Below are positions 3,194 to 54,520 of a stretch of DNA of 62,162 nt, in pieces. This DNA is from a virus (taxonomy: Duplodnaviria; Caudoviricetes): positions 1 through 62,162 of the IMG/VR virus record IMGVR_UViG_3300031576_000512. One strand, given 5' to 3'. Position 1 is the first letter of the stretch, and each line of letters opens with the position of its first letter. Below the pieces are notes generated by a model. The model worked only from the letters and a program-made list of their open reading frames with translations. It searched no databases and was not told the origin of the DNA. A program made the position numbers and the translations under genes.

Positions 3194-5326
3194 ATGAAGA
3201 AGCGAGCTCTTGCTGAAGAACTGGCCGGCGGATGGGAAGGGCTGAGGCAGCATCCCATCGCCGGCACTGCATTGGGCATCGGCTCGTTCTTCCCTGTCGC
3301 CGGCAGTGCTATCTCTGCCGGTGACATGATGCAGAACCTCTATCGTGGCAACATGGCCAGCGCTGGCCTCAACGCTGTCGGTGTAGCAGCGGGTATGCTC
3401 CCCGGTGGTAAGGTGCTGACCAATCTGGCATCCAAGGGTCGACTTGGACAGGCAGCAGCCAAAGCGGCTCCCTACCTCGCACCCATTCCCGGCAAGATGC
3501 CGACCATCCCTCAGTTCTTCAGCGCTCCACTTGCTTCAGCAGCCGCAAGCATGGCCGATCAGTCCTTGCAGGCAGAACGGCCGACCTACCAGAAACAAAT
3601 GAGAGAACAGGAGAGGATGATGAGAGACTTCAACGAATGGCGGCAACACAAGGCCACTCTTCAGGCCCTCGGTCAGCAGCCTCAAGTCAAGGAGGGGCAG
3701 GCACCAACTACAGCCGATATGGCCGGAAGATTGTGGGACATCACTCGTGGTGCGAGCCCGTACCTGGCTGCTGGGATCGCCGGCGGACATATGCTGCCGT
3801 CTTACTACAAGGATGACATGCCGGGCGTGATGCGTGGTGCCTTGACCGGCGGCGGGGCCTTCGGAGGCACCGTCGGCGGTTTCATGGGTGGCGGTCTTGG
3901 TGGTGCATCACTTGGCCGTCTGCTTGCTATGAGATACGGACTCAACCCCTCAAATGCAGCGCTGGTCGGCGGCGGCATCGGTGGCGTGCTTGGCGGCATT
4001 GGCGGTCATGCAGCTGGTCGACATGCTGTCGGTGCGCTCATGGGTAATGAGGAAGAAAACCCACGGCAGTTGAAGTTCGGCAGCGACAAGTCAGCAGCCC
4101 AAGTTGAATTGACCCCCGAAGAGTATGCACAGATCATCGAAAACCAGAAGCCTAGCCTTACTTATGGCGCTGGAATGGGTGGCATGCTTGGCGCCGCTGT
4201 GGGAGGAGATCTGGCAAACCGAGCAAGGCAGCCGACGAGAAACATTGCCGCTAGCATGCTTGGTGGTGGACTTGCTGGTGCTGGAGTTGGCCTTGGCATT
4301 CAAGGTCTGCGTCGTCTGTTATGGCGCAATCGAGGCGGGAATCCCATCCAAATAAAGTTCGGCAGCAACAAGTCAGCCGACTTTGGTCAAGCGTGGGACC
4401 AGGAAGTTGCGTCTCCATTCCGCAGGGGCATGACTGCAGTCAGCGACGTAGCACGAAACAAGATCGTCGATCCTATTGCTGGCCACTTGTCACCATCTGC
4501 AGCAGTTATGGGTCGTCATGGTTTCCCGTTGGCTCGCATCAAGCCAAGTCTTGGTGTTCGAGCTGCGCACGGTTTGGGACAGGCATCAAGATGGATGGGG
4601 AAGAACCCGGTTGCAAGCGGCAGCATGGCTACGGCTGCTGTTGCTATCCCTAGCCTGCTGGCCTTGCGTGCAATAACAGGTGGCAGTTCACAGCCACAAG
4701 CTGAAGCAGGGCCATCGGGCCCGAACGGCTACGAGGAGGAAGAGGAGAAGCAGGCGGCCAAGAACCCACAGCAGCGGGCGAAAGGTGCCATCAAACGAGA
4801 GATGAGTCAAGCCCAGCAAGCTGGTTACAGTGCTTTTGACCCACGAGCAAGGCAGAAAGCCCTCGATGCCGGTCGTAGCCGTCGTCGTGGCGCCGCACCA
4901 GTCGAACCACCTGCTGCGGCTGCGCCATTGATCGAACCATCACTTGCCGCAGCGGCTTCGCCGCCTCCGCCGACTGCAGCACCGGCTTTGCCTCCACCGA
5001 AGCCCATGCCCGACTTGTTCATCCCAACACTCACAGAAAACGTCTTCGAGCGGCAGCGCAAGTCGCTGGGCCTGGGTGCTGACGCTGCTGCCGCTGCAAT
5101 GAGGCCACCAACAGGTCTGGAAGCGCCACCTCCTCTCAGTGCGTGGGGAAGGGTTAGAGCTCATCCAATGGTCAACCGCATCGGCTCCTTCGCTGCATCG
5201 CCAAGAGGTCAAGCTGCCATCCTCGGCACTCTTGCTCTCGGTGGTGCAGGTGCATACTGGGCAGGCAGACGCAATCGCAAGAAAGAAGACACACAAGCCG
5301 AGCAAGAAATGGCTCAGGCTGGTTAA
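3194..5326 (+). CDS. Modular glycine-zipper/hydrophobic protein segmented by K-x-[AG] motifs
   Basis: SD GAGG; repeated GxxxG hydrophobic segments; KKRA, VKEG, KFGSDKSAA, KFGSNKSAD, EKQAA. Confidence 0.85.
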   Translation: MKKRALAEELAGGWEGLRQHPIAGTALGIGSFFPVAGSAISAGDMMQNLYRGNMASAGLNAVGVAAGMLPGGKVLTNLASKGRLGQAAAKAAPYLAPIPGKMPTIPQFFSAPLASAAASMADQSLQAERPTYQKQMREQERMMRDFNEWRQHKATLQALGQQPQVKEGQAPTTADMAGRLWDITRGASPYLAAGIAGGHMLPSYYKDDMPGVMRGALTGGGAFGGTVGGFMGGGLGGASLGRLLAMRYGLNPSNAALVGGGIGGVLGGIGGHAAGRHAVGALMGNEEENPRQLKFGSDKSAAQVELTPEEYAQIIENQKPSLTYGAGMGGMLGAAVGGDLANRARQPTRNIAASMLGGGLAGAGVGLGIQGLRRLLWRNRGGNPIQIKFGSNKSADFGQAWDQEVASPFRRGMTAVSDVARNKIVDPIAGHLSPSAAVMGRHGFPLARIKPSLGVRAAHGLGQASRWMGKNPVASGSMATAAVAIPSLLALRAITGGSSQPQAEAGPSGPNGYEEEEEKQAAKNPQQRAKGAIKREMSQAQQAGYSAFDPRARQKALDAGRSRRRGAAPVEPPAAAAPLIEPSLAAAASPPPPTAAPALPPPKPMPDLFIPTLTENVFERQRKSLGLGADAAAAAMRPPTGLEAPPPLSAWGRVRAHPMVNRIGSFAASPRGQAAILGTLALGGAGAYWAGRRNRKKEDTQAEQEMAQAG
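4073..4377 (+). repeat. 23-bp direct repeat encoding the KFGS[D/N]KSA linker (4073-4095 and 4355-4377)
   Basis: AAGTTCGGCAGC[G/A]ACAAGTCAGC, one mismatch. Confidence 0.85.
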
Positions 5327-5328
5327 GC

Positions 5329-5588
5329 AACGGCAGGTAAGAGGTCTCGCTTGTGGCGACCCTGGTAGCTCACAAGAGCAACTTTTGGCCAGGGGGCATC
5401 GGTGGGGCCTGGTCGACGAAAGTCGACTGGACGTTGGCCTGGTAAGGGTCACAGAACCTCGTCCCGGGTGTCATCGTGCCGCCGTCCCTACAGAACCAGG
5501 CTGGTCCTGCGGCAACGATCGAGGCCGAACCCCAAGGCGCGACTGGAGCAATCCTAACCGGCAGGGGTGTGACACTCAGCTTGCTGTT
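5329..5588 (+). ncRNA. Candidate structured RNA, about 260 nt
   Basis: Ends pair (AACGGCAGG/CTTGCTGTT); internal stems including GTCGAC-GAAA-GTCGAC. Confidence 0.45.
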
Positions 5589-5601
5589 TTGGAGGAGAGA
5601 C

Positions 5602-6114
5602 ATGACCAAGATGATCTTGTGCTGCTTGATGAGTACATTTTTACTCACCGCTCAAGTCATCGCCGAAGTCAAGATCCTGGTCAAGCATCGCGTGGCGAAC
5701 CAATCGCCTGGATACTGTGTGTGGTGCTCGCTTGATACGTGGGGCAATCACACCAAGAACAAACAGCTCATCGGATTGACAGCATATTATGTTGAACATG
5801 ACAGACGAGCCATCAGCGGCAGGCCAGAGACAATCAATCGACAGCTCAGCATCCTTGGTGTGAAGTACGAGCATCGGCTGCCTGGAAAGAAAGACTTCGA
5901 CTTCGTGAAGCAGCACGTCCAGGCCGGTCGTGCTGTTATGGCAGACGTGAGGGATTATCCACGAGTCGGCGATCTCCATGCCATCCTCATCGTCGATGCT
6001 ACGGACGAGAGTGTCCGGTTCATCGACAGTAACGACATTGAGTGGGATTGGTTGTACAAGACGACAACCTTCAAGCAGCAATGGACAGGGTGGGCAGTGG
6101 TGATCCTCGACTAG
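5602..6114 (+). CDS. Secreted papain-fold (C39-like) cysteine peptidase
   Basis: SD GGAGGAG; signal-peptide-like N-terminus; NQSPGYCVWCS, HAILIV, FIDSN. Confidence 0.75.
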   Translation: MTKMILCCLMSTFLLTAQVIAEVKILVKHRVANQSPGYCVWCSLDTWGNHTKNKQLIGLTAYYVEHDRRAISGRPETINRQLSILGVKYEHRLPGKKDFDFVKQHVQAGRAVMADVRDYPRVGDLHAILIVDATDESVRFIDSNDIEWDWLYKTTTFKQQWTGWAVVILD

Positions 6115-6140
6115 CCTCAGCCAAAGGAGGTGGCCGTGCG

Positions 6141-6599
6141 ATGCGCTACCAACAAGTTGGCTGGTCCTGCGGCGCCGCTGCAGTTGTCAATACGCTGAGG
6201 GCGTTCGGCAGGAGAGTGGCTGAGAGCTGTGTGCGAACGCACGCTGGCACCAACAAAACAGGTACAGAAAATACTGGCATCCTGGCATCTTTGAGGGCAT
6301 TCGGCCTTGCTGGTGTTGAATACAACGGTACATCGAAGAATCACGCATGGCGTTGGCTGCAAGGAGCATTGCTGCAAGGGTCAGTCGTCATCCTCAGTGT
6401 TGACAGATGGACGCACTGGGTCACTTGCATTGGCTTGGTCGGCGACCGTGTAATCCTGATTGACTCGACCAACGCTATTGCCAACAAGCGGGAGAATGGC
6501 ATCCACGTTATCCCCAAGGAGAAACTGATCCGCCGATGGCACCATGCCAAGCAATCGGATGAGTATTCGCTCTACGCGATCTGCGCCAGTAAGGGTTGA
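6141..6599 (+). CDS. C39-family cysteine peptidase
   Basis: SD AAGGAGG; QQVGWSCGAAA, HWVTCIG, LIDS. Confidence 0.85.
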   Translation: MRYQQVGWSCGAAAVVNTLRAFGRRVAESCVRTHAGTNKTGTENTGILASLRAFGLAGVEYNGTSKNHAWRWLQGALLQGSVVILSVDRWTHWVTCIGLVGDRVILIDSTNAIANKRENGIHVIPKEKLIRRWHHAKQSDEYSLYAICASKG

Positions 6600-6630: not shown

Positions 6631-6921
6631 ATGGTCAAACGCAAACTGATCACTCGCCTGGCGTGGACGCAAAAAGGTGTCAGCAAGTTCGAGTCCCTCA
6701 TCAACGAGCACATGTTGAGAGGATGGGAACCAGTCGTCATCGAGATCGACAAGAAGGGCTTCCGGATCATCTGCTTCGCCTTGCTGGCGATGCCAACGCA
6801 ATGCGACTGTGAATGCAGTTGTTGTACTGGAGAAGCACAGCACGATGAAGACTGCAAGTGTGCCTGTGATTGCTGCTTGATGCACTCGAATCAGTGCGTC
6901 AAGGAGCCCAAGGAGGATTGA
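6631..6921 (+). CDS. Hypothetical protein with metallothionein-like Cys-rich tail
   Basis: SD GGAGG; CDCECSCC...CKCACDCC. Confidence 0.7.
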   Translation: MVKRKLITRLAWTQKGVSKFESLINEHMLRGWEPVVIEIDKKGFRIICFALLAMPTQCDCECSCCTGEAQHDEDCKCACDCCLMHSNQCVKEPKED

Positions 6922-6923
6922 AA

Positions 6924-9131
6924 ATGAACATGGATGTTCTGGCCGATGCTCTCGCACGTCACACCTTACAGAAGCAAGGTATCGGGCCGGCCGCTCTGAT
7001 TCCACTGGCTGCAAAGGCTGGCGGTGGTCTGCTTGCTGCTGGTAAGGCTACTCTACCTTGGCTTGGCATGGGTGGCGCCATGGCGGCCGGCGACATCGGT
7101 ATCCGTAAGATGCTAGAGCCAGGCCAGCAAGATCCACAAGGCCCACAAGGTCCAGGCGGTACTGGCGCCGGCATGGATCAACCTGCTGCGGGGCCGTGCG
7201 GCCCAGGACATGGTTCGACCAGCGGAATGCTGGGTGGTCCCAAGGGCGGTCCGCCTGACTTTGGCAACGCTCATAGTCGTGATCGTGCCGATCCTGATAT
7301 TGGTCAGGATGATTCACAGCGTCATCCAATAGCCGGCTTCAAGCTGGCCGAGGCTGCTGCTCTTCTCACGTTCCGCAAGCGAGCTCAAGGTCCAAATCCA
7401 GATCCTTACCCATATGGACATGCCTTTCGCAGTGCTGCCGAGGACATCCCCGGGCTCATCAACACGCCACTCAATGCTCTTGCTTACGGTGGACTCGGTG
7501 CCCTCAGCGGCCTAGCGCTCGGTCGTTCTCCCGGTCATGGTGCTATGATTGGTGCTGGCATGGGTGCAGGTGCAGGACTTGGTGCCACACTGGGTGGAAC
7601 AGCTGGTTATGCGTTATCTCCACTTGCTGCAGTCATAGCACAGCGTTACGGCATGGACCCACGGAAGGCAATTGGCATGTCAACACGACTTGGTCTGGTT
7701 GGCGGCGGCCTCACTGGTGCGTATCTTGGCGGCAGAGCTGGTTACCGTGCTGGTAAAGCCAAGCCAAGTGAAAAACCAGAGGAGAAGCAGTCATTTGCCA
7801 AGGCAGCCATCTACGGCATTGCCGACGTTGGCGATCCAGGCTTCGCAGGGCTCCAGGAAGGCGTCTGGCATGGTCGAGATGCCCTGCAGTCCCTACGTGG
7901 CGGTCAAGTCGGCCAGGCGGGCCGACAGGGCCTCCAAGCAGCCAGGCACACGGCATCTGGCCTCGGGGAAGCTGGCGTTGCTGGCGCTCGTCGTGCCGGT
8001 GGAGCCATCGGCTCAGGTGTCCAGCGAGCTGGTGGTGCTATCGGTGGAGGTATTCAGCGGGCTGGTCGTGCCATGTCTGGCCGTCCCGGCTTGACGGCTG
8101 CTCTTGCAGCAGGCGTGCCTTTGGCTCTCGGTGCTGGCTATGCAGCTCTCGGTGGCGGCAGCAAGCCAACAGAAGGTCCGCAAGGCAAGCACGACGATGA
8201 GAAGCAGAGTCATGTCAAAGGTGCAGCAGCCATCATGAGCAACAACTTGCTGGATGTCCTGGCCTTCAACGTAGAGATGACCGATCGGAAGTTTGCCAAG
8301 CGCGCCCAGGGGCCAATGGCGCCACCGGCGACGCCAGCACCACAACCTGGACAAGCTGGCTTCAGACCGCCACCACCGCAACTGCCGTCTCAATTGCCTA
8401 GCATGGCGGGCATTCAGGCTTCGAGATCGCAACAGCCGGCAGCGCCGGCATCTTCGGCACCGTTTTACATGGCAGCGCCTGCTGCAGCACCGCCACGAAC
8501 TTCACCACCGGCAGCGCCGGCATCTTCGGCACCGCCGGCGCCAAGTCAACCAGGTGGATTCACTCTCGGCGGCGGTAGTAGGCCGTCAGCACCGGCACCA
8601 TCAGCGCCGCAAACAAGGCCAGCAGGTGGATCTATTGGCGGCAGAGGCAAACATGACAAGTCCGCTTCGAGCAACCTGCTGAACGTTTTGGCCAGCAACA
8701 TGAAGAAGGCCGAACGGAGGGCCGGCCTCGTCCCTTTTGCTAAGTTTGCCGTGAATGGCACGGCAGGTGGATTCAATCCAGAGGCTCAGTTGGTTCATCG
8801 TATTGAGCATCCGGCTGGTTCTTTGGGTGCTCAATTGTTCGGTGCCTCTCGTGGCGGTAGCCCTACATCTGGCGGGCCACCAGGGGCTGCTCGTCCGGGG
8901 CCCGGACCTACGACCCCTCTTCCGGCGCCGGAACCGGCCAGTGGACTGCCTGGAACTGCCAGGCCCGGCTTAGCAGCGCCCAGCGCGCCTCCGGGAACCG
9001 CCAGACCCGGCCCGACACCGCCCCCAGCGCCACCACCCACTGCACAGCCAGAGGAAAGACCAGCCATCAAGCCGACAGGCGGCTTCACCATCGGTGGTGG
9101 ACCAAAGAAGTTGATTGATATGGGTGTGTAA
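6924..9131 (+). CDS. Modular glycine-zipper/Pro-rich protein segmented by K-x-[AGS] motifs
   Basis: SD AAGGAGG; QKQG, FKLA, RKRAQGP, EKQS, AKAA, VKGAA, KFAKRAQGP, DKSAS, AKFA. Confidence 0.85.
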   Translation: MNMDVLADALARHTLQKQGIGPAALIPLAAKAGGGLLAAGKATLPWLGMGGAMAAGDIGIRKMLEPGQQDPQGPQGPGGTGAGMDQPAAGPCGPGHGSTSGMLGGPKGGPPDFGNAHSRDRADPDIGQDDSQRHPIAGFKLAEAAALLTFRKRAQGPNPDPYPYGHAFRSAAEDIPGLINTPLNALAYGGLGALSGLALGRSPGHGAMIGAGMGAGAGLGATLGGTAGYALSPLAAVIAQRYGMDPRKAIGMSTRLGLVGGGLTGAYLGGRAGYRAGKAKPSEKPEEKQSFAKAAIYGIADVGDPGFAGLQEGVWHGRDALQSLRGGQVGQAGRQGLQAARHTASGLGEAGVAGARRAGGAIGSGVQRAGGAIGGGIQRAGRAMSGRPGLTAALAAGVPLALGAGYAALGGGSKPTEGPQGKHDDEKQSHVKGAAAIMSNNLLDVLAFNVEMTDRKFAKRAQGPMAPPATPAPQPGQAGFRPPPPQLPSQLPSMAGIQASRSQQPAAPASSAPFYMAAPAAAPPRTSPPAAPASSAPPAPSQPGGFTLGGGSRPSAPAPSAPQTRPAGGSIGGRGKHDKSASSNLLNVLASNMKKAERRAGLVPFAKFAVNGTAGGFNPEAQLVHRIEHPAGSLGAQLFGASRGGSPTSGGPPGAARPGPGPTTPLPAPEPASGLPGTARPGLAAPSAPPGTARPGPTPPPAPPPTAQPEERPAIKPTGGFTIGGGPKKLIDMGV

Positions 9132-9176: not shown

Positions 9177-9206
9177 CCTGTTTGCACTTGCAAATAGGCG
9201 CGAATC

Positions 9207-9222
9207 CAGTAAAGATTTACTC
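9207..9222. promoter_or_regulatory. AGTA-N6-TACT palindrome upstream of spoVG
   Basis: CAGTA-AAGATT-TACTC. Confidence 0.55.
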
Positions 9223-9238
9223 CAGTGAGGAGACAACC

Positions 9239-9697
9239 ATGAAAATCACAGAGATTCGTGTCAAGCTCATTGAGGACAAGGCTGACAACCGCCTTCGAGC
9301 GTTCTGCTCGATCACCTTGGACGACTCGTTTGTCGTCCGTGACCTCAAGATCATTGACGGCACCAAGGGCCTCTTTATCGCCATGCCAAGTCGGAAGCTG
9401 ACCGATCGGTGCCATCGGTGCGGCTACAAGAACAACCTGCGTGCGTACTACTGCAATGACTGTGGTGAGCGGTTGAAAGACAACCGTGCGGCTGTCGACG
9501 ACAATGGTCGCGCCAAGTTGCACGCCGACATTGCTCATCCTATCAATGCCGAGTGTCGCGAAATGATCCAGACGGCAGTGGTCGTGGCTTACAAGGAGGA
9601 GCGCGAGCTCTCCAAGCAGCCTGGTTACGCTTGCACCTACGATGAACCCATGGATGACGACTTGGTACATGATCGTCCTCGTCGCCCCATCAATTGA
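9239..9697 (+). CDS. spoVG: SpoVG family nucleic-acid-binding protein with Zn-ribbon insertion
   Basis: [47 protein letters not shown]; CHRC...CNDC insert. Confidence 0.93.
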
Positions 9698-10323: not shown

Positions 10324-10743
10324 ATGAAAACTTTGTATGTCACCGTTGGCCTGCCTCGCTCTGGCAAGTCGACTTGGGCACGGCAGCAGAACGTGCCCAC
10401 CGTCAACCCCGACAGCATACGCCTGGCTTTGCACGGCCAGCGCTTCTATCCGCCAGCCGAGCAGTTCGTGTGGGCAGTGACCAGCCTCATGGTTCGTGCC
10501 CTTTTCATCGCTGGCCATGATAAAGTCATCCTCGATGCCACCAATACTACCAAGTCGAGACGCGACAAATGGTCCTCGACCGAGTGGGCGACTTGCTACG
10601 TGTTGTTTGGCACTGAGAAGGAAGAGTGCATCTGTCGTGCAGGTGATGACGAGGAACTGATCAGAGTCATCGAACGTATGCACGCAGAGGGCGAGCGCGT
10701 GGAACTGACTGAGAATTGGATTCTTCCAAAACCTATCAATTGA
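10324..10743 (+). CDS. AAA_33 / polynucleotide-kinase-like P-loop kinase
   Basis: GLPRSGKST, NPDSIR, VILDATN..R. Confidence 0.85.
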   Translation: MKTLYVTVGLPRSGKSTWARQQNVPTVNPDSIRLALHGQRFYPPAEQFVWAVTSLMVRALFIAGHDKVILDATNTTKSRRDKWSSTEWATCYVLFGTEKEECICRAGDDEELIRVIERMHAEGERVELTENWILPKPIN

Positions 10744-10808
10744 GGTACTTGATTGTGAGTAGCATAATCATTGCTATACCACCTGTGTGTAACAGAAAAA
10801 TCAGGTGT

Positions 10809-11312
10809 ATGCTCGATGCTGCTAAGCAAAAAAGGAAAACTGTCCCATTATATGAACATGCCATCGAGCTCTTCAGTGAACTCAAGATTGCTGGTTCACT
10901 GACAGAGGTTTATACCGGGCGTACATGTCCGCATTGTGGTGTTGCAACTGTGTGGAGGTGTGCCGATGATATGTATGCGTGTATGACGTTGCAACATTAC
11001 AGTGAGCCTTTCAACGGCAACTTGTTTGGCTTTATCTGTCATCTCTGTAACGTGCTTGATGGCAATTTCGGTACGAAGTTGTTCGTGGAAACGCTGCAAC
11101 GTCCTGGTTTCAAATGGTGTCAACACCACAAAGTTTTCCATCCAGCCAATGATTTTCGCCGCACCGGTCGTTACGGGGGAAGACCGTACTCTGACATTGA
11201 AGCGTATGCCAAGTCTCATCCATTAGGTTATCTGGTTGCTCTGCGTAGTATTTGCAGATCTGCTGAGATAGAGCACAAAGAAAATTCATCGATGGTGACA
11301 AAGGATGATTGA
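10809..11312 (+). CDS. Hypothetical Zn-binding protein
   Basis: CPHC, YAC...H, KWCQHH; lower-GC ORF. Confidence 0.55.
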   Translation: MLDAAKQKRKTVPLYEHAIELFSELKIAGSLTEVYTGRTCPHCGVATVWRCADDMYACMTLQHYSEPFNGNLFGFICHLCNVLDGNFGTKLFVETLQRPGFKWCQHHKVFHPANDFRRTGRYGGRPYSDIEAYAKSHPLGYLVALRSICRSAEIEHKENSSMVTKDD

Positions 11313-11360
11313 CTTTTTGATCTCCTTCCGAGATAATTTATCTTGAAAGGAGATCAAGCC

Positions 11361-11768
11361 ATGTTGTAGATTGATCACGTTTACGTTGTTGTCTGCCGAG
11401 ACATCCCAGTTCGTCATCAGGCTGTTCAAGCATGTCACGCCGCCATTGCAGCTGGCCAGGATCTCATCCGCTGCAAGTCTCCGTACCTCGTCCTCGTCAC
11501 CGTTCCCAACCAGCACGCCCTGATTGCGTTGAGCTGCAAGCTCAGCAGAGCAGGCGTGGCTCATCGTGTTTTCAATGAGGATGACATGGGTGGTCGGCCG
11601 ACAGCTTTGGCGACACAACCAGTGACTCAAGAGCAGCGGAGCCTGTTTGGAGGATTGCCGCTCTATCGGGTGGGTAGCTCAGCAGCAGAGCGTCGCAGCG
11701 GCCCTCAAGGCCAAGCGAAGGTCGGAGGTGCAAGTCCTCCCCCACCCGCTGTGAATGCGTCGGGATGA
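11361..11768 (+). CDS. Peptidyl-tRNA hydrolase 2 (Pth2)-like protein with in-frame amber codon at codon 3
   Basis: SD AAAGGAG then ATG TTG TAG ATT GAT CAC GTT TAC...; read-through gives YVVVCRDI, QAVQACHAA, LVLVTV, FNEDDMGGRPTALAT, LPLY; ORF track shows only 11529-11768. Confidence 0.8.
11668..11748 (+). ncRNA. tRNA-like RNA with extended anticodon arm
   Basis: GGGTGGG/CCCACCC, D arm GCTC-AGCAGCA-GAGC, T arm GGAGG-TGCAAGT-CCTCC; anticodon arm TCGC-AGC-GGCC-CTCAA-GGCC-AA-GCGA. Confidence 0.75.
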
Positions 11769-11824
11769 TCAGTAGGCCCCTTTACTGCATGGTCACTGCC
11801 GCTGTCATGCAGACGCATTCGCCA
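11751..11824 (+). ncRNA. Candidate three-way-junction RNA ending in GCCA
   Basis: GTGAATGCGTC/GACGCATTCGC closing stem, two internal hairpins. Confidence 0.45.
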
Positions 11825-11825
11825 T

Positions 11826-11898
11826 CCCGCCGTAGCTCAATTGGAAGAGCAGGAGCTTCTAAAACTCTTGGTTCCGGGTTCGAGTCCCGGCGGCGGGT
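11826..11898 (+). tRNA. Amber suppressor tRNA (anticodon CTA)
   Basis: CCCGCCG/CGGCGGG, GCTC-AATTGGAA-GAGC, GGAGC-TTCTAAA-ACTCT (C31-A39 mismatch), CCGGG-TTCGAGT-CCCGG; CTA at 11859-11861. Confidence 0.85.
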
Positions 11899-11906
11899 TT
11901 GGAAAT

Positions 11907-11938
11907 CGAAAGCCGACATCTTGCGATGCCGGCTTTCG
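11907..11938 (+). terminator. Hairpin after amber tRNA (terminator or processing stem)
   Basis: CGAAAGCCGACATC-TTGC-GATGCCGGCTTTCG; weak U tract. Confidence 0.5.
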
Positions 11939-12057
11939 TCGTTTACGATGTCTACATGCCTGACATCTACACTCATCATTCTGATGCACCCAAGCGTTGG
12001 TACAAGATCGGTGTCGGTTTTGTCGATGCTGAAGGCCAGCCATTACAGGAGAATCGT

Positions 12058-12681
12058 ATGTACGAACGTTTCACCGACCGCTCTCGCAAGGTCATGCAGT
12101 TGTCCAACCAGGAGGCCCAGCGCCTCAACCACGAGTATATCGGCACCGAGCACATGCTGCTTGGCCTCATCAAGGAGGGCTCCGGTGTTGCTGCCAACGT
12201 CCTCAAGAACCTCGATCTCGACTTGAACAAATGCCGAGTCGAAGTCCTCAAACTGGTTTCACCAGGGCCGGGCCCCGCTGTGATCATCATGGGCAAGCTA
12301 CCTATGACCCCACGAACGAAGCGTGTCCTCGAAAGTGCCATCCAATCTGCCTTGGATCTCAACCACAACTATGTTGGTACTGAACATCTATTGCTCGGTC
12401 TCGTCACCGAGAGAGAAGGCATTGCTGCGCAAGTCTTGATGAACTTCAACGTCACAGTTGAAACGGTCCGTGAGGAAGTCCTCAACTTACTGGGTTTCAA
12501 TCCTCGGCAGGTGGATGCAGAGGCAGAGGCGGACGAGCAGCTTGAAGAAGGGCTGGCACTGAAAGAGATGCTCAGGGAGTGGCTGACTGCGTGGGTCGGC
12601 GAGCGCCACGAGTACGTGAATGGCTGTTACACTTGTGAATGTTGGGAGGCGTTCGACACCATCTTCCGTCACGCGAGGTGA
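12058..12681 (+). CDS. Stand-alone ClpC/ClpB N-terminal (two Clp repeats) protein
   Basis: SD AGGAG; MYERFTDRSRKVM, HEYIGTEHMLLGL, HNYVGTEHLLLGL; no AAA domain. Confidence 0.9.
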   Translation: MYERFTDRSRKVMQLSNQEAQRLNHEYIGTEHMLLGLIKEGSGVAANVLKNLDLDLNKCRVEVLKLVSPGPGPAVIIMGKLPMTPRTKRVLESAIQSALDLNHNYVGTEHLLLGLVTEREGIAAQVLMNFNVTVETVREEVLNLLGFNPRQVDAEAEADEQLEEGLALKEMLREWLTAWVGERHEYVNGCYTCECWEAFDTIFRHAR

Positions 12682-12683
12682 AC

Positions 12684-13136
12684 GTGGACAAAACCCTGCT
12701 CGCTTATACGGCCGGCTTCTTCGATGGAGAAGGCTGTATTTGTGCCACCCGTAGAGGTTGCCGACTGTTCATTGCCAACACTCGCCTGATTGTGCTCCAT
12801 AGTCTTCGCTTCAAGTGGAGCAAGATGGGGCACATTTATGTTTGGCAATCGAAGAAATACCCACATCACAAACCCAAGTATCACTGGGCAATCACTACTG
12901 GCGAGCAGGCCACACATTTTTTGCGGCACATACGTGACTATCTGATTCTCAAATCTCGGCAAGCCAGCCTTGCGTTGGAACTCATCAGTTTGAACCCTGG
13001 TTCTGGCCATCGGCTGAGAGGCGCAGCTTTAGAACGACGCAACTGGCTCGTTGATGAAATCCGCAGCATCAACCGAAAAACACCACCAGCTCCACATGGA
13101 GATAATCATGTCAGCGCAAGAGAAGTTCCTCGCTGA
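12684..13136 (+). CDS. LAGLIDADG homing endonuclease (single motif)
   Basis: LAYTAGFFDGEGCI; YLILKSRQA. Confidence 0.88.
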   Translation: MDKTLLAYTAGFFDGEGCICATRRGCRLFIANTRLIVLHSLRFKWSKMGHIYVWQSKKYPHHKPKYHWAITTGEQATHFLRHIRDYLILKSRQASLALELISLNPGSGHRLRGAALERRNWLVDEIRSINRKTPPAPHGDNHVSAREVPR

Positions 13137-53000: not shown

Positions 53001-54520
53001 ACTGGTCGAACTTCATGCAAGGCAATCGCCCACCAACGCCTCGCGTGCCAATCGTCTACGAGAAGTTCGTCAACCAGCTCAAGGCGTCTGGCATCAATGT
53101 GCAGCGCGAGGGAAGCCATACACACTTGATGGAGCTCACCAACAAGAACGTTGACGAGTTGGCCGGTGATCGTGAATTGCAGAATGTTGAGACTGTTGAT
53201 TGGAAGACTGGCTTGGCACCGATCAGGGGTGGTTTGTTTGATGAGAAGCTCACTGGCGGTCATAACGGCAACCGTTGGGCAAAGATCACCTTGCACGAGC
53301 CGATGCCCAACCCAGTGATGGAGGAACCGATCCGTCGTCTTCTCGGTCTTACCCAGGAAAAGTTCAATGGCGTCATTGCCGGTACTGAGGAACTAGGTGG
53401 TAAGACTGGCTCAGGTGCTATACAAGCTGCTCTTGCCTCAGTCAATCTGGACAAGTCAATCCAACAAGCACAGGCCGACATCGCCTCTGGCAAGAAGACG
53501 TTGCGCGACAACGCAGTGCGAAAACTACAGTACCTCAAGTCAGCCAAGATGAAGGGCATCCATCCCAAGGACTGGATGCTGGATTCTGTGCCAGTGCTAC
53601 CACCCATGTTCCGTCCCATCTCGGTCATGCAACAAACTGGTGGTCGTCTCATCACCGATGCTAACTATCTGTACAAGGAGCTGTTCGACGCCAATAACGC
53701 TTTGAAGAAGGTGTCTGGCATCTCCGAGGACATCGGTGACGAACGACTCAACTTGTACAACGCCTTCAAGGGTGTCACTGGTCTTGGCGATCCAGTGCAT
53801 CCGAAGAATCAGGACAAGAAGATCAAAGGCTTCTTGCAGCATGTCTTCGGCGGTAGCCCGAAGTTCGGTACTGTTCAGCAGAAGCTGATTGGCACCACGG
53901 TTGATTTGGTGGGTCGTGCCGTGGTTGTGCCGAACCCCGACTTGAACATGGATGAAGTGGGTCTCCCGGAAGCTCGCGCCTGGGAAATCTATACTCCATT
54001 CATCACTCGTCGTTTAGTCAAGAAAGGTGTGCCTCGGGTACAGGCGCTGGAATACATCAATAACAAGCACGATGTCGCCAAGAAGGCAATGCTTGAAGAG
54101 ATCAACGAACGGCCGGTCATCGTGACTCGTGCTCCGACCCTCCATCGCTATGGTCTCATGGCATTCTGGCCAAAGCTGACGAAGGGCGAGACACTGCAGA
54201 TCAGCCCGATTGTAGTTGGTGGTTTCGGTATGGACTTCGACGGCGATGCCTCAAACTACCACGTCCCCGCTTCCGATGAAGCTCGTGATGAGGTGGTGGA
54301 CAAGTTGATGCCAAGTAAAAATTTACTGAGCACTCAGAAGTTCCAGGCCCACTATCTCCCTCGACAGGAATACGTAGGAGGACTTTGGAATGCGACAAAT
54401 CGGGTAGACTCAAAGAAACAACCTCGCGTATTTGCAACCAAGCAGGATGCCTTGCGGGCTTTCCATAAGGGCGAGATCGACCCGGACCACCCGGTTCACA
54501 TCGTACATGCGGAGAGATGA
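50036..54520 (+). CDS. DNA-directed RNA polymerase: beta subunit fused to the N-terminal (catalytic) part of beta'
   Basis: beta: TPES..VG, NYEDA, GDKMSGRYGDKGVV, NPLGIISR.N, MKLHH; beta': GLFDEKL.G, VPVLPP..RP, GTTVDLVGRAVV, RAPTLHR, GMDFDGD (54227-54247). Confidence 0.95.
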   Translation: MPSIITVGPNVNVPDAAENKTVAPATTLGPAPAQRSIVAGPKPEPVTMRAFGDSNATREAIYSNVMKAAQSIQPVSNSRYTLSLHNPQWADNPEVSIIDRKKAILRGETLNRRLRGLWRLSDTQGNVLGERTATVAHVPRMTNQGTFVVNGSEYTLGHQMRLRPGVFTRRKENGELESHINIMPGKGMSHHYFLEPETGVFKIRVGQSNMPLISVMKAMGVSDKEMSAAWGSELHGINMQKDDPRAIDKLYARLIGKKGDPQASADQKREAVAKAFNDMELDPEVTKRTLGQPFHKLSKEVALATTKKLLAVSRGEADTDDRDALAFQHFMGPEDLFAERIGRDKRVLNELLWKASTHGNLEKLPTGAFTQHVHAALLDSGLGQSLEEINPADVFDQQTRVSRLGYGGIPSIDAVPDEARSVQPSHLGYIDLLRTPESFKVGVDSRVSFVAKKGSDGRIYTPFTDVKTGQMVYRSPQDVADMTLAFPGEMEKGKPLVAAMVGSKTRYVPRDQVNLIMPHAEHWFSPINNMVPMKSAVQGQRASMASRFITQALPVKDAESPFVRGQVPGAVGRSFEEHYGHQVGAVFGEKQVGRVAKVGPDSISVKYADGSTKEHELYNNFPYNRKTYIHNTPLVKAGDPVQPGQLLAKSNYTDDKGHVALGKNLRVAYVPFRGLNYEDAYVISHSAAEKLSSEHMYQHNLEWEEKHRKGLNSFISIFPGAFEKKQLVGMDSDGVIKPGTVIRPGDPVVLAARERELSRKQVHAAHKGSFVNDSITWDHHAEGVVTDVEKTEKGVTVAIKSLNKMQVGDKMSGRYGDKGVVAEVISDDQMPHDDQGRPFEVLANPLGIISRRNPAQKVEATLGAIAEKTGKHYSVDDFSNINDLNEYAISERQKYGVNNYTSINDPTTNKKIDNVFTGNRFFMKLHHTSESKGQGRGLGGYTAEGMPAKGGAEGSKRMALMDVNAMLSHGALETLRDAKLIRGQKNQEYWSNFMQGNRPPTPRVPIVYEKFVNQLKASGINVQREGSHTHLMELTNKNVDELAGDRELQNVETVDWKTGLAPIRGGLFDEKLTGGHNGNRWAKITLHEPMPNPVMEEPIRRLLGLTQEKFNGVIAGTEELGGKTGSGAIQAALASVNLDKSIQQAQADIASGKKTLRDNAVRKLQYLKSAKMKGIHPKDWMLDSVPVLPPMFRPISVMQQTGGRLITDANYLYKELFDANNALKKVSGISEDIGDERLNLYNAFKGVTGLGDPVHPKNQDKKIKGFLQHVFGGSPKFGTVQQKLIGTTVDLVGRAVVVPNPDLNMDEVGLPEARAWEIYTPFITRRLVKKGVPRVQALEYINNKHDVAKKAMLEEINERPVIVTRAPTLHRYGLMAFWPKLTKGETLQISPIVVGGFGMDFDGDASNYHVPASDEARDEVVDKLMPSKNLLSTQKFQAHYLPRQEYVGGLWNATNRVDSKKQPRVFATKQDALRAFHKGEIDPDHPVHIVHAER

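Follow-up and report, generated by a model that had tools for sequence, protein, structure and literature searches.

The window analyzed here is a stretch of 62,162 nucleotides (nt), positions 1 to 62,162 of IMG/VR virus record IMGVR_UViG_3300031576_000512 (Duplodnaviria; Caudoviricetes). It is a linear fragment, with a CheckV completeness of ~31%, and it holds genes of the large-phage type, i.e., those for a multisubunit RNA polymerase, a helicase, and a ligase. On its plus strand lies a compact operon in which the gene for a small protein with a Pth2-like fold carries an in-frame amber codon at codon 3 and is followed by a tRNA with the anticodon CUA. Early in-frame stops recur in relatives of this gene, and the stop matches the anticodon of the suppressor tRNA encoded nearby. 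From these comparisons, it is likely that translation of the Pth2-like gene requires the suppressor tRNA to read the stop codon, which would then serve as a gate. The features of the operon are as follows:

11309–11337, + strand, sigma-70-like promoter: TTGACT, 17 nt, GATAAT (10 of 12 consensus matches; a consensus match only)
11346–11352, + strand, Shine-Dalgarno (SD) sequence AAAGGAG, with the core GGAG at 11349–11352 (read from the sequence)
11361–11366, + strand, two-codon leader ATG TTG (Met-Leu; ATG at 11361–11363, TTG at 11364–11366)
11367–11369, + strand, in-frame amber TAG at codon 3, next base A; the proposed gate (position conserved in relatives)
11370–11666, + strand, Pth2-fold domain of 99 amino acids with an invariant QAVQACHA motif (Pfam, AlphaFold2, Foldseek)
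11667–11768, + strand, tail of the open reading frame (ORF), 34 codons running through a tRNA look-alike to the TGA at 11766–11768 (translation)
11668–11748, + strand, tRNA look-alike (Rfam RF00005, 48.4 bits; fold z score −3.4; missed by ARAGORN)
11751–11822, + strand, long imperfect hairpin that follows the look-alike, precedes the suppressor tRNA, and spans the TGA (−32.1 kcal/mol; z score −3.2; 0 of 200 shuffles as stable)
11826–11898, + strand, amber suppressor tRNA(CUA) (ARAGORN anticodon cta; Rfam 60.9 bits)
11907–11938, + strand, strong stem-loop after the tRNA (z score −3.85; no call in a terminator scan, the T run being short)

Anatomy of the Proposed Gate

The SD sequence is spaced 8 nt from the leader ATG at 11361, compared with 17 nt from ATT 11370, the codon that directly follows the TAG and from which the frame remains open until the TGA at 11766–11768. 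The first in-frame ATG, GTG, or TTG past the TAG occurs at 11529, 54 codons on and beyond the QAVQACHA motif. An earlier note on this DNA had described a strong SD sequence, ATG TTG, the TAG at 11367–11369, an intact Pth2-like domain, and no canonical in-frame start before 11529, past the conserved motif; direct reading, translation, the Pfam PTH2 match, and a start-codon scan gave the same picture. The Met-Leu-stop leader is also found at three related loci (L002, L041, and L054), and most gated relatives have a GGAG-type motif upstream of the leader ATG, as judged by eye. The predicted transcription start at ~11343–11346 lies a few bases before the SD sequence, giving a 5′ untranslated region of ~16 nt, and the region 10600–12300 contains four promoter-like sites compared with 1.2 expected from shuffles.

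Both strands of the window were scanned for an SD sequence followed by ATG, at most 12 codons, TAG, and at least 70 open codons. This pattern occurs in five places, and the Pth2-like gene alone has its first canonical start more than 11 codons downstream. A candidate second gated gene at 54390–54407 (SD, ATG, five codons, TAG) was rejected; it lies inside the RNA polymerase gene, and the ORF downstream starts at an ATG of its own (54522) behind GGAGAG. A Logan contig with a depth of ~9 is identical in its letters over 11000–12329. This contig probably derives from the same sample and is not independent; it therefore weighs against an assembly artefact, yet it is no independent check of the reads.

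A Phage Branch of the Pth2 Fold

Assignment of the domain to the Pth2 fold, as predicted by structural modeling, is secure. An AlphaFold2 model built from an 18-sequence alignment has a predicted local distance difference test (pLDDT) score of 94.7 and a predicted template modeling (pTM) score of 0.86, and its ten best Foldseek matches in the PDB are all Pth2 chains (2zv3, 3erj, 1q7s, 1wn2, and 1xty), with E values from 1.6e-6 to 1.8e-5 and query-normalized template modeling (TM) scores of 0.75–0.84 for Pth2 structures. A sequence profile searched against PDB sequences also found solved Pth2 chains, the best being 24bt_A (E 3.6e-5). The Pfam PTH2 profile (PF01981) matches residues 8–100 over profile positions 4–113 of 115 with 23.3 bits against a cut-off of 23.0, a marginal pass, and a separate scoring gave 21.9 bits, or 23.8 bits when the neighbors in frame were included.

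Thirty metagenomic proteins are 57–71% identical to the domain, and the family shows no variation at Gln 17, His 23, or Ala 24. Residues with a catalytic role in Pth2 enzymes are a Lys that precedes the AQxxHA helix and the Asp of the DAG motif. When the profile is aligned to 24bt_A and 2zv3_A, Glu 70, which is invariant in the phage family, falls on this Asp. A profile search of 1.84 billion cluster representatives returned 4,348 at E ≤ 0.001, among which canonical Pth2 enzymes are probably counted, and 2,006 at E ≤ 1e-10; the latter ~2,000 representatives outline an uncharacterized phage branch of the fold. Many of the metagenomic homologues are called from an internal Met, and standard gene callers truncate or miss gated genes. 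Fused family members of 230–280 amino acids also exist (e.g., P0062), and one of ten tested has an N-terminal HD domain while the other partners have no Pfam match. An HD-domain partner gene was considered for the window as well and set aside, there being no HD match in the window and just this one case among the ten long fused members.

Structured RNAs Downstream of the Domain

The tRNA(CUA) begins 58 nt past the TGA of the Pth2-like ORF on the same strand, as the earlier note had stated and as ARAGORN and Rfam agree. It forms a canonical cloverleaf and has a seven-nucleotide anticodon loop, UUCUAAA, with U33, a short variable arm, a C1-G72 pair, U73, and no encoded CCA, and the innermost pair of its anticodon stem is a C-A mismatch. 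Its sequence aligns with those of the suppressors in close relatives, among them the TCA-reading tRNA of L040. The acceptor-stem and discriminator features of these suppressors (C1-G72 and U73 in the window) are heterogeneous among relatives.

Two further structured RNAs had been placed between the stop codon and the tRNA. Both exist, and they are instead located downstream of the Pth2 domain and upstream of the tRNA; the look-alike at 11668–11748 lies inside the 3′ part of the ORF, and the hairpin at 11751–11822 straddles the TGA. The acceptor, D, and T arms of the look-alike are normal; in place of the anticodon arm there is a longer, irregular helix capped by 5 nt (18 nt, compared with 9 in the model). 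Its positional counterparts at L039 (520–594) and L042 (682–755) have seven-base-pair stems capped by GCAA and GAAA tetraloops, respectively. As judged from their sequences, these look-alikes lack an anticodon and are predicted to be unable to read codons. Two candidate generalizations were rejected. The ORF has no stop before the look-alike and runs through it only in the window and L042, two of nine close loci, and in the remaining seven it ends 7–493 nt before the first tRNA-like match; the overlap is hence a local quirk. In 20 further loci, Rfam tRNA matches largely coincided with normal tRNAs called by ARAGORN, and the look-alikes cluster in near relatives of the window. The stem-loop at 11907–11938 probably marks the end of the operon or a processing site.

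Conservation of the Early Stop Among Relatives

The window was compared with 19 viral and 80 metagenome loci (the best 80 of 82 confirmed), and removal of duplicates left 78 distinct loci, the window among them. A locus was scored as leader-gated if an in-frame stop was preceded by an ATG within eight codons and was followed by none ahead of the first strand of the domain. By this rule, 37 loci were gated, five were ambiguous (ATG also after the stop), 34 were normal-looking, and two were unclear; the last two were reassigned as gated by eye (L027, with a GTG leader, and L055, with a 12-codon leader), which brought the leader-gated loci to 39. In these 39, a start and 1–12 codons lead into the in-frame stop, and an ATG is absent from there to the first strand. 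At L046 (140–439), a close relative of L054, a Met-Leu-TAG leader is accompanied by an in-frame TAA eight codons later, which may reflect decay of this copy or an error in assembly.

A second stop site was found in 19 loci, 13–21 codons past the QAVQ motif in the loop after helix 1, with TAG in 17 and TAA in two. Ungated relatives have Lys, Glu, or Arg at this site; any residue therefore seems to be tolerated there. Elsewhere in the first 80 residues past the motif, no in-frame stop was found in the 78 loci, save for one natural ORF end. A maximum-likelihood tree was built from 77 rows, with one short row left out; 41 rows carry the leader stop, 17 the loop stop, two both, and 17 none, so that 60 of the 77 have a stop. 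These labels require at least 11 changes on the tree, which implies that the gate was gained or lost repeatedly. The window falls in a well-supported clade of seven rows, all of them leader-gated.

The leaders themselves also exhibit constraint. Among those reading Gly-Phe-Thr-stop-Val, the residues are kept through synonymous changes (GGC/GGT/GGA, TTC/TTT, and ACG/ACC/ACA), as would be expected of a leader that is translated as part of the protein. Immediately after the leader stop, all 39 loci have a purine (26 G and 13 A), and a purine in this position is a context that favors amber suppression.

These comparisons bear on another account of the early TAG, namely, that it is a sequencing error or a nonsense mutation in a decaying gene whose 3′ end was overrun by a tRNA-like insertion. 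The ORF does lack its own stop before the tRNA-like element, through which it continues for 34 codons, and its Pfam score is marginal. Against this, the domain is intact, is modeled at the high pLDDT given above, and retains its 57–71% identity to 30 metagenomic proteins, all seven members of its clade share the early stop, and a second assembly, probably of the same sample, has the same letters. A dead gene or an erroneous base is thus highly improbable, and the sequencing error or private mutation that the earlier note had itself raised as a danger to its proposal is mostly excluded by the shared stop and the identical second assembly.

Pairing of Stop Codon and Anticodon

Suppressor tRNAs were called by ARAGORN in the fetched flanks of the loci. 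A leader TAG is accompanied by a tRNA with the anticodon cta at 20 gated and three ambiguous loci, and a loop TAG by cta at 13 loci. Where the leader stop is TGA, the tRNA reads tca (L040, L079, and L007), and where the loop stop is TAA, it reads tta (L096 and L104). Among the gated loci with a suppressor in the fetched flanks, no mismatch between stop and anticodon was found. The most telling case, by sequence comparison, appears to be L040, which is 68% identical and lies inside the seven-row clade of the window. Its leader reads ATG-TGC-TGA and its tRNA has the anticodon TCA on a backbone similar to that of the amber suppressors of the clade, indicating that stop and anticodon were both switched.

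The pairing extends to other collections. In a collection of species genomes, four of four loci have a leader of the form M..GFT-TAG-V and a tRNA(cta) ~0.8 kb downstream, and all four are in Planctomycetes bins, which hints at the host group. One of the loci carrying a gated gene and a tRNA(cta), L135, is at 3,279,692–3,285,946 of an 8.26-Mb chromosome assembled from a metagenome (Rubripirellula sp., OZ244207.1). The cultured jumbo Serratia phage BF (L136, NC_041917.1) contains an unannotated Pth2-like gene at ~286,088–286,394 with an ATG-ACG-CAC-TAG leader, and a tRNA(cta) at 289,666 (L146, 1085–1160) lies 3.3 kb downstream of it; this phage is a tractable experimental model for the gate. In Mycobacterium phage Catera (L138, NC_008207.1), ATG-TAG-GTG precedes gp153, a family member annotated as a peptidyl-tRNA hydrolase in sister phages, and the GTG is probably the true start. 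A tRNA 250 nt past gp153 (L138, 3105–3178) is labeled tRNA-Arg in the record and has the anticodon cta according to ARAGORN. The homologue in RaK2 starts normally, and the XacN1 copy of the domain forms part of a longer fusion protein.

The codon that follows the stop allows a second explanation to be weighed, in which no suppression takes place. Here, ATG-TTG-TAG would be a two-codon mini-ORF, the gene would be translated by re-initiation or by a direct start at AUU 11370, and the tRNA would be unrelated. ATT is a weak bacterial start codon, as in infC, and in the window it directly follows the TAG; at L002 an ATG comes next after the stop, in Catera the codon behind ATG-TAG is a GTG with better SD spacing, and ATT, ATA, or GTG occupies this place in 12 of the 39 gated loci. 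In the remaining 27, however, the next codon is GTT, GTA, GTC, GGN, GCG, ACT, or AAA, none of which is a known start, and bypass of the loop-position stops would lose strand 1 and helix 1. Re-initiation is therefore not the general route, and initiation at ATT 11370, which had been named beforehand as an outcome that would overturn the idea of a gate, cannot hold for the family at large. Moreover, 24 of the 37 loci found by the rule have no ATG, GTG, or TTG at all before the QAVQ motif, and the TGA-tca and TAA-tta pairings would be left unexplained. Taken together, these points make a mechanism free of suppression quite unlikely.

Genetic Code of the Window and Its Relatives

A crude tiling with translation table 11 placed 81 ORFs over 93.4% of the window, ending in TGA (42), TAA (30), and TAG (9). 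The fraction of the window covered by ORFs is 0.83 with table 11, 0.87 with TAG as sense, 0.90 with TAA as sense, and 0.98 with TGA as sense. The gain obtained by reading TAG as sense is smaller than that from TGA or TAA both in the window and in three contigs of relatives, G001, G002, and G004 (94, 120, and 50 kb, respectively; G004 is 77% complete). No other leader-gated gene without a nearby start was found in the window or in these three contigs, where the Pth2-like gene stands alone. The visible genome uses the standard code, with two thirds of the phage unseen. The TAG codons at 6114, 15024, 19797, 27430, 41015, 58546, and 59722, previously listed as normal gene ends, are all ends of table-11 ORFs, and the earlier conclusion that the genome is not globally recoded is borne out by the nine ORFs that end in TAG, the small gain from TAG as sense, and the lack of a second gated gene.

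A third explanation would nevertheless place the Pth2-like gene as one recoded gene among many in a phage that reads TAG as an amino acid (code 15), with the tRNA serving late genes. The record, being only ~31% complete, contains genes for replication and transcription, a class that stays in the standard code in recoded phages according to the preprint by Borges et al. (10.1101/2021.08.26.457843). TAG is also the rarest stop in the window, at nine of 81 ORFs, and a match between stop and anticodon is expected under recoding too. Code 15 calls for many genes that need TAG as sense and for a gain in coding density, whereas a single such gene was found in 62 kb, covering ~31% of the genome, and no signal was found in the 62-kb window or in the contigs of relatives of 94, 120, and 50 kb, one of which is 77% complete. 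In addition, across the 78 loci the stop is fixed at two permissive positions and is not scattered, TAG still terminates nine ORFs of the window, and four loci belong to Planctomycetes genome bins, one of them on an 8.26-Mb chromosome. Genome-wide recoding is on balance an unlikely explanation.

A Model for Suppressor-Gated Expression

The arrangement is best described as an operon of three to four parts, in which a promoter-like site would drive the Pth2-like gene, the tRNA look-alike, the hairpin, and tRNA(CUA). Ribosomes would load at ATG 11361 behind the strong SD sequence and encounter UAG as the third codon. If the phage tRNA were absent, release factor 1 would terminate translation after Met-Leu. 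Charged tRNA(CUA), apparently derived from the same transcript, would compete with release factor 1 and convert the UAG into an amino acid. Read-through alone would yield the Pth2-fold hydrolase of ~100 residues, and its output would scale with suppression relative to termination. The stop would thus be placed where a failed attempt costs only a dipeptide and where any inserted residue may be tolerated. We infer both the read-through and the purpose of the gate from sequence comparison. The proposal of the earlier note, that the enzyme is made only when the suppressor works, gains support from the conserved stop, the permissive sites, the co-change of stop and anticodon, and the absence of visible recoding.

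Since even ungated members adjoin suppressors, the enzyme probably acts on the suppressor or on its effects. For the purpose of the gate, the earlier note had suggested a feedback sensor or a timing switch. The preferred purpose would be a dose-matched clean-up, in which the hydrolase removes N-blocked aminoacyl-tRNA or peptidyl-tRNA arising from ribosomes that run past stops. An equally simple one, suggested by analogy with prfB, would be negative feedback, in which the hydrolase lowers the pool of charged tRNA, including the reporter tRNA, and thereby limits its own synthesis. A broader and tentative possibility, one that we hold to be doubtful as a whole, is that the suppressor tRNA of a standard-code phage is the key of a self-contained circuit. 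Acting as a dedicated reporter on which no other phage gene depends, this tRNA would read the state of tRNA charging and termination in the infected cell and set the dose of a Pth2-like tRNA-ester hydrolase that acts back on that state; such a homeostat would have been rebuilt many times with TAG, TGA, or TAA, and the look-alikes would be decoys or substrates.

Several observations weigh against suppressor-gated expression of a hydrolase or limit its reach. The position of the Pth2 Lys is occupied by His in the window and by Gln, Tyr, or Ser in relatives, according to the profile alignment; with His or Gln in this position, hydrolase activity is likely and not assured. No suppressor was found in the fetched flanks of 16 gated loci with a TAG leader and one with a TGA leader, most of which are contigs of 1–2.5 kb; six of them (L055, L065, L066, L069, L102, and L103) show none in ~3 kb on each side. 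The purine after the stop may merely reflect the conserved Val or Ile encoded there. Seventeen of the 77 family members have no in-frame stop, and at least nine of these still lie beside a suppressor; the link between gene and tRNA thus extends beyond the gate, which is dispensable. The window represents ~31% of the phage by CheckV, and late genes recoded at TAG may lie outside it. Finally, cleavage by RNase P at 11668, if it occurs, would leave an mRNA with no stop codon, for which the model does not account.

Neighboring Genes

The operon is directly followed by a gene for a stand-alone protein with two Clp_N repeats (12060–12681; E 1.2e-33), the end of which is overlapped by an ORF for a LAGLIDADG-type homing endonuclease (12639–13136). 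Upstream, 9182–9697 encodes a SpoVG homologue (Pfam E 2e-28), with a zinc-ribbon-like stretch at residues 72–99 inside the SpoVG match. A peptidase C39-like ORF (6042–6599, within 5476–6599) is situated between genes for two large proteins, at 3194–5326 and 6870–9131, both without a Pfam match.

Relation to Known Systems

The nearest structural counterparts of the gated protein are the archaeal and eukaryotic Pth2 enzymes (PF01981; 2zv3, 3erj, 1q7s, 1wn2, 1xty), with which it shares the fold, the xQxxHA motif of helix 1, and an acidic residue at the position of the DAG-motif Asp. It differs from them in sequence, with an identity of 18–24%, and the phage family has Glu in place of that Asp and His or Gln in place of the Lys, four residues before the motif Gln. 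Unlike these enzymes, the family of the window is phage-borne and adjoins suppressor tRNAs.

The gene for release factor 2, prfB, contains an early in-frame UGA that is passed by +1 frameshifting and is autoregulated by its own product. In both prfB and the window, an early in-frame stop in a gene for a translation factor would sense the decoding of that very stop, so that output follows the termination machinery. A conserved early in-frame stop in a translation-related gene was found here in 43 of the 77 tree rows (41 with the leader stop and two with both stops). The two systems differ in the way in which the stop is passed, which in the window would depend on a dedicated tRNA and not on a frameshift governed by the factor that is being sensed. 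The bar minigenes of phage lambda are two-codon ORFs with a strong SD sequence that trap tRNA as peptidyl-tRNA when Pth is limiting. The SD sequence, ATG, single codon, and stop of the window formally constitute such a minigene, and the connection between minigenes and Pth is striking. The bar minigenes, however, neither share a frame with a gene downstream nor depend on a suppressor, and the leaders of the relatives of the window reach 12 codons.

Suppressor tRNAs occur in many phages that use the standard code, and in the parts of the literature consulted they are treated as unexplained or as a step towards recoding (10.1101/2021.08.26.457843). A conserved client gene beside the tRNA, the stop of which changes with the anticodon, provides a first concrete and testable job for such suppressors. 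The arrangement would be a compact natural switch, made of a stop codon and its cognate tRNA, and a possible sensor of termination versus read-through. No published description was found of a single dedicated client gene in standard-code phages, of fixed stop positions, or of a three-way match between codons and anticodons, in agreement with the earlier remark that no characterization of this arrangement was known, and supplementary tables might list such genes. The text of the preprint on recoded phages, its supplementary tables apart, has no mention of a hydrolase or Pth (10.1101/2021.08.26.457843).

The closest parallel in principle is offered by those recoded phages (crAss-like, Lak, Agate, and others, with TAG or TGA read as sense), for which gating of genes with in-frame stops by phage suppressor tRNAs was already proposed in that preprint (10.1101/2021.08.26.457843). 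In both cases, a suppressor tRNA encoded by the phage would let ribosomes read in-frame stops in phage genes. In the recoded phages, as described there, the stops are scattered through many late genes for structural and lysis proteins, and another code is used. In contrast, the phage of the window uses the standard code, and the stop is confined to one small translation-related gene beside the tRNA, at a fixed and permissive site.

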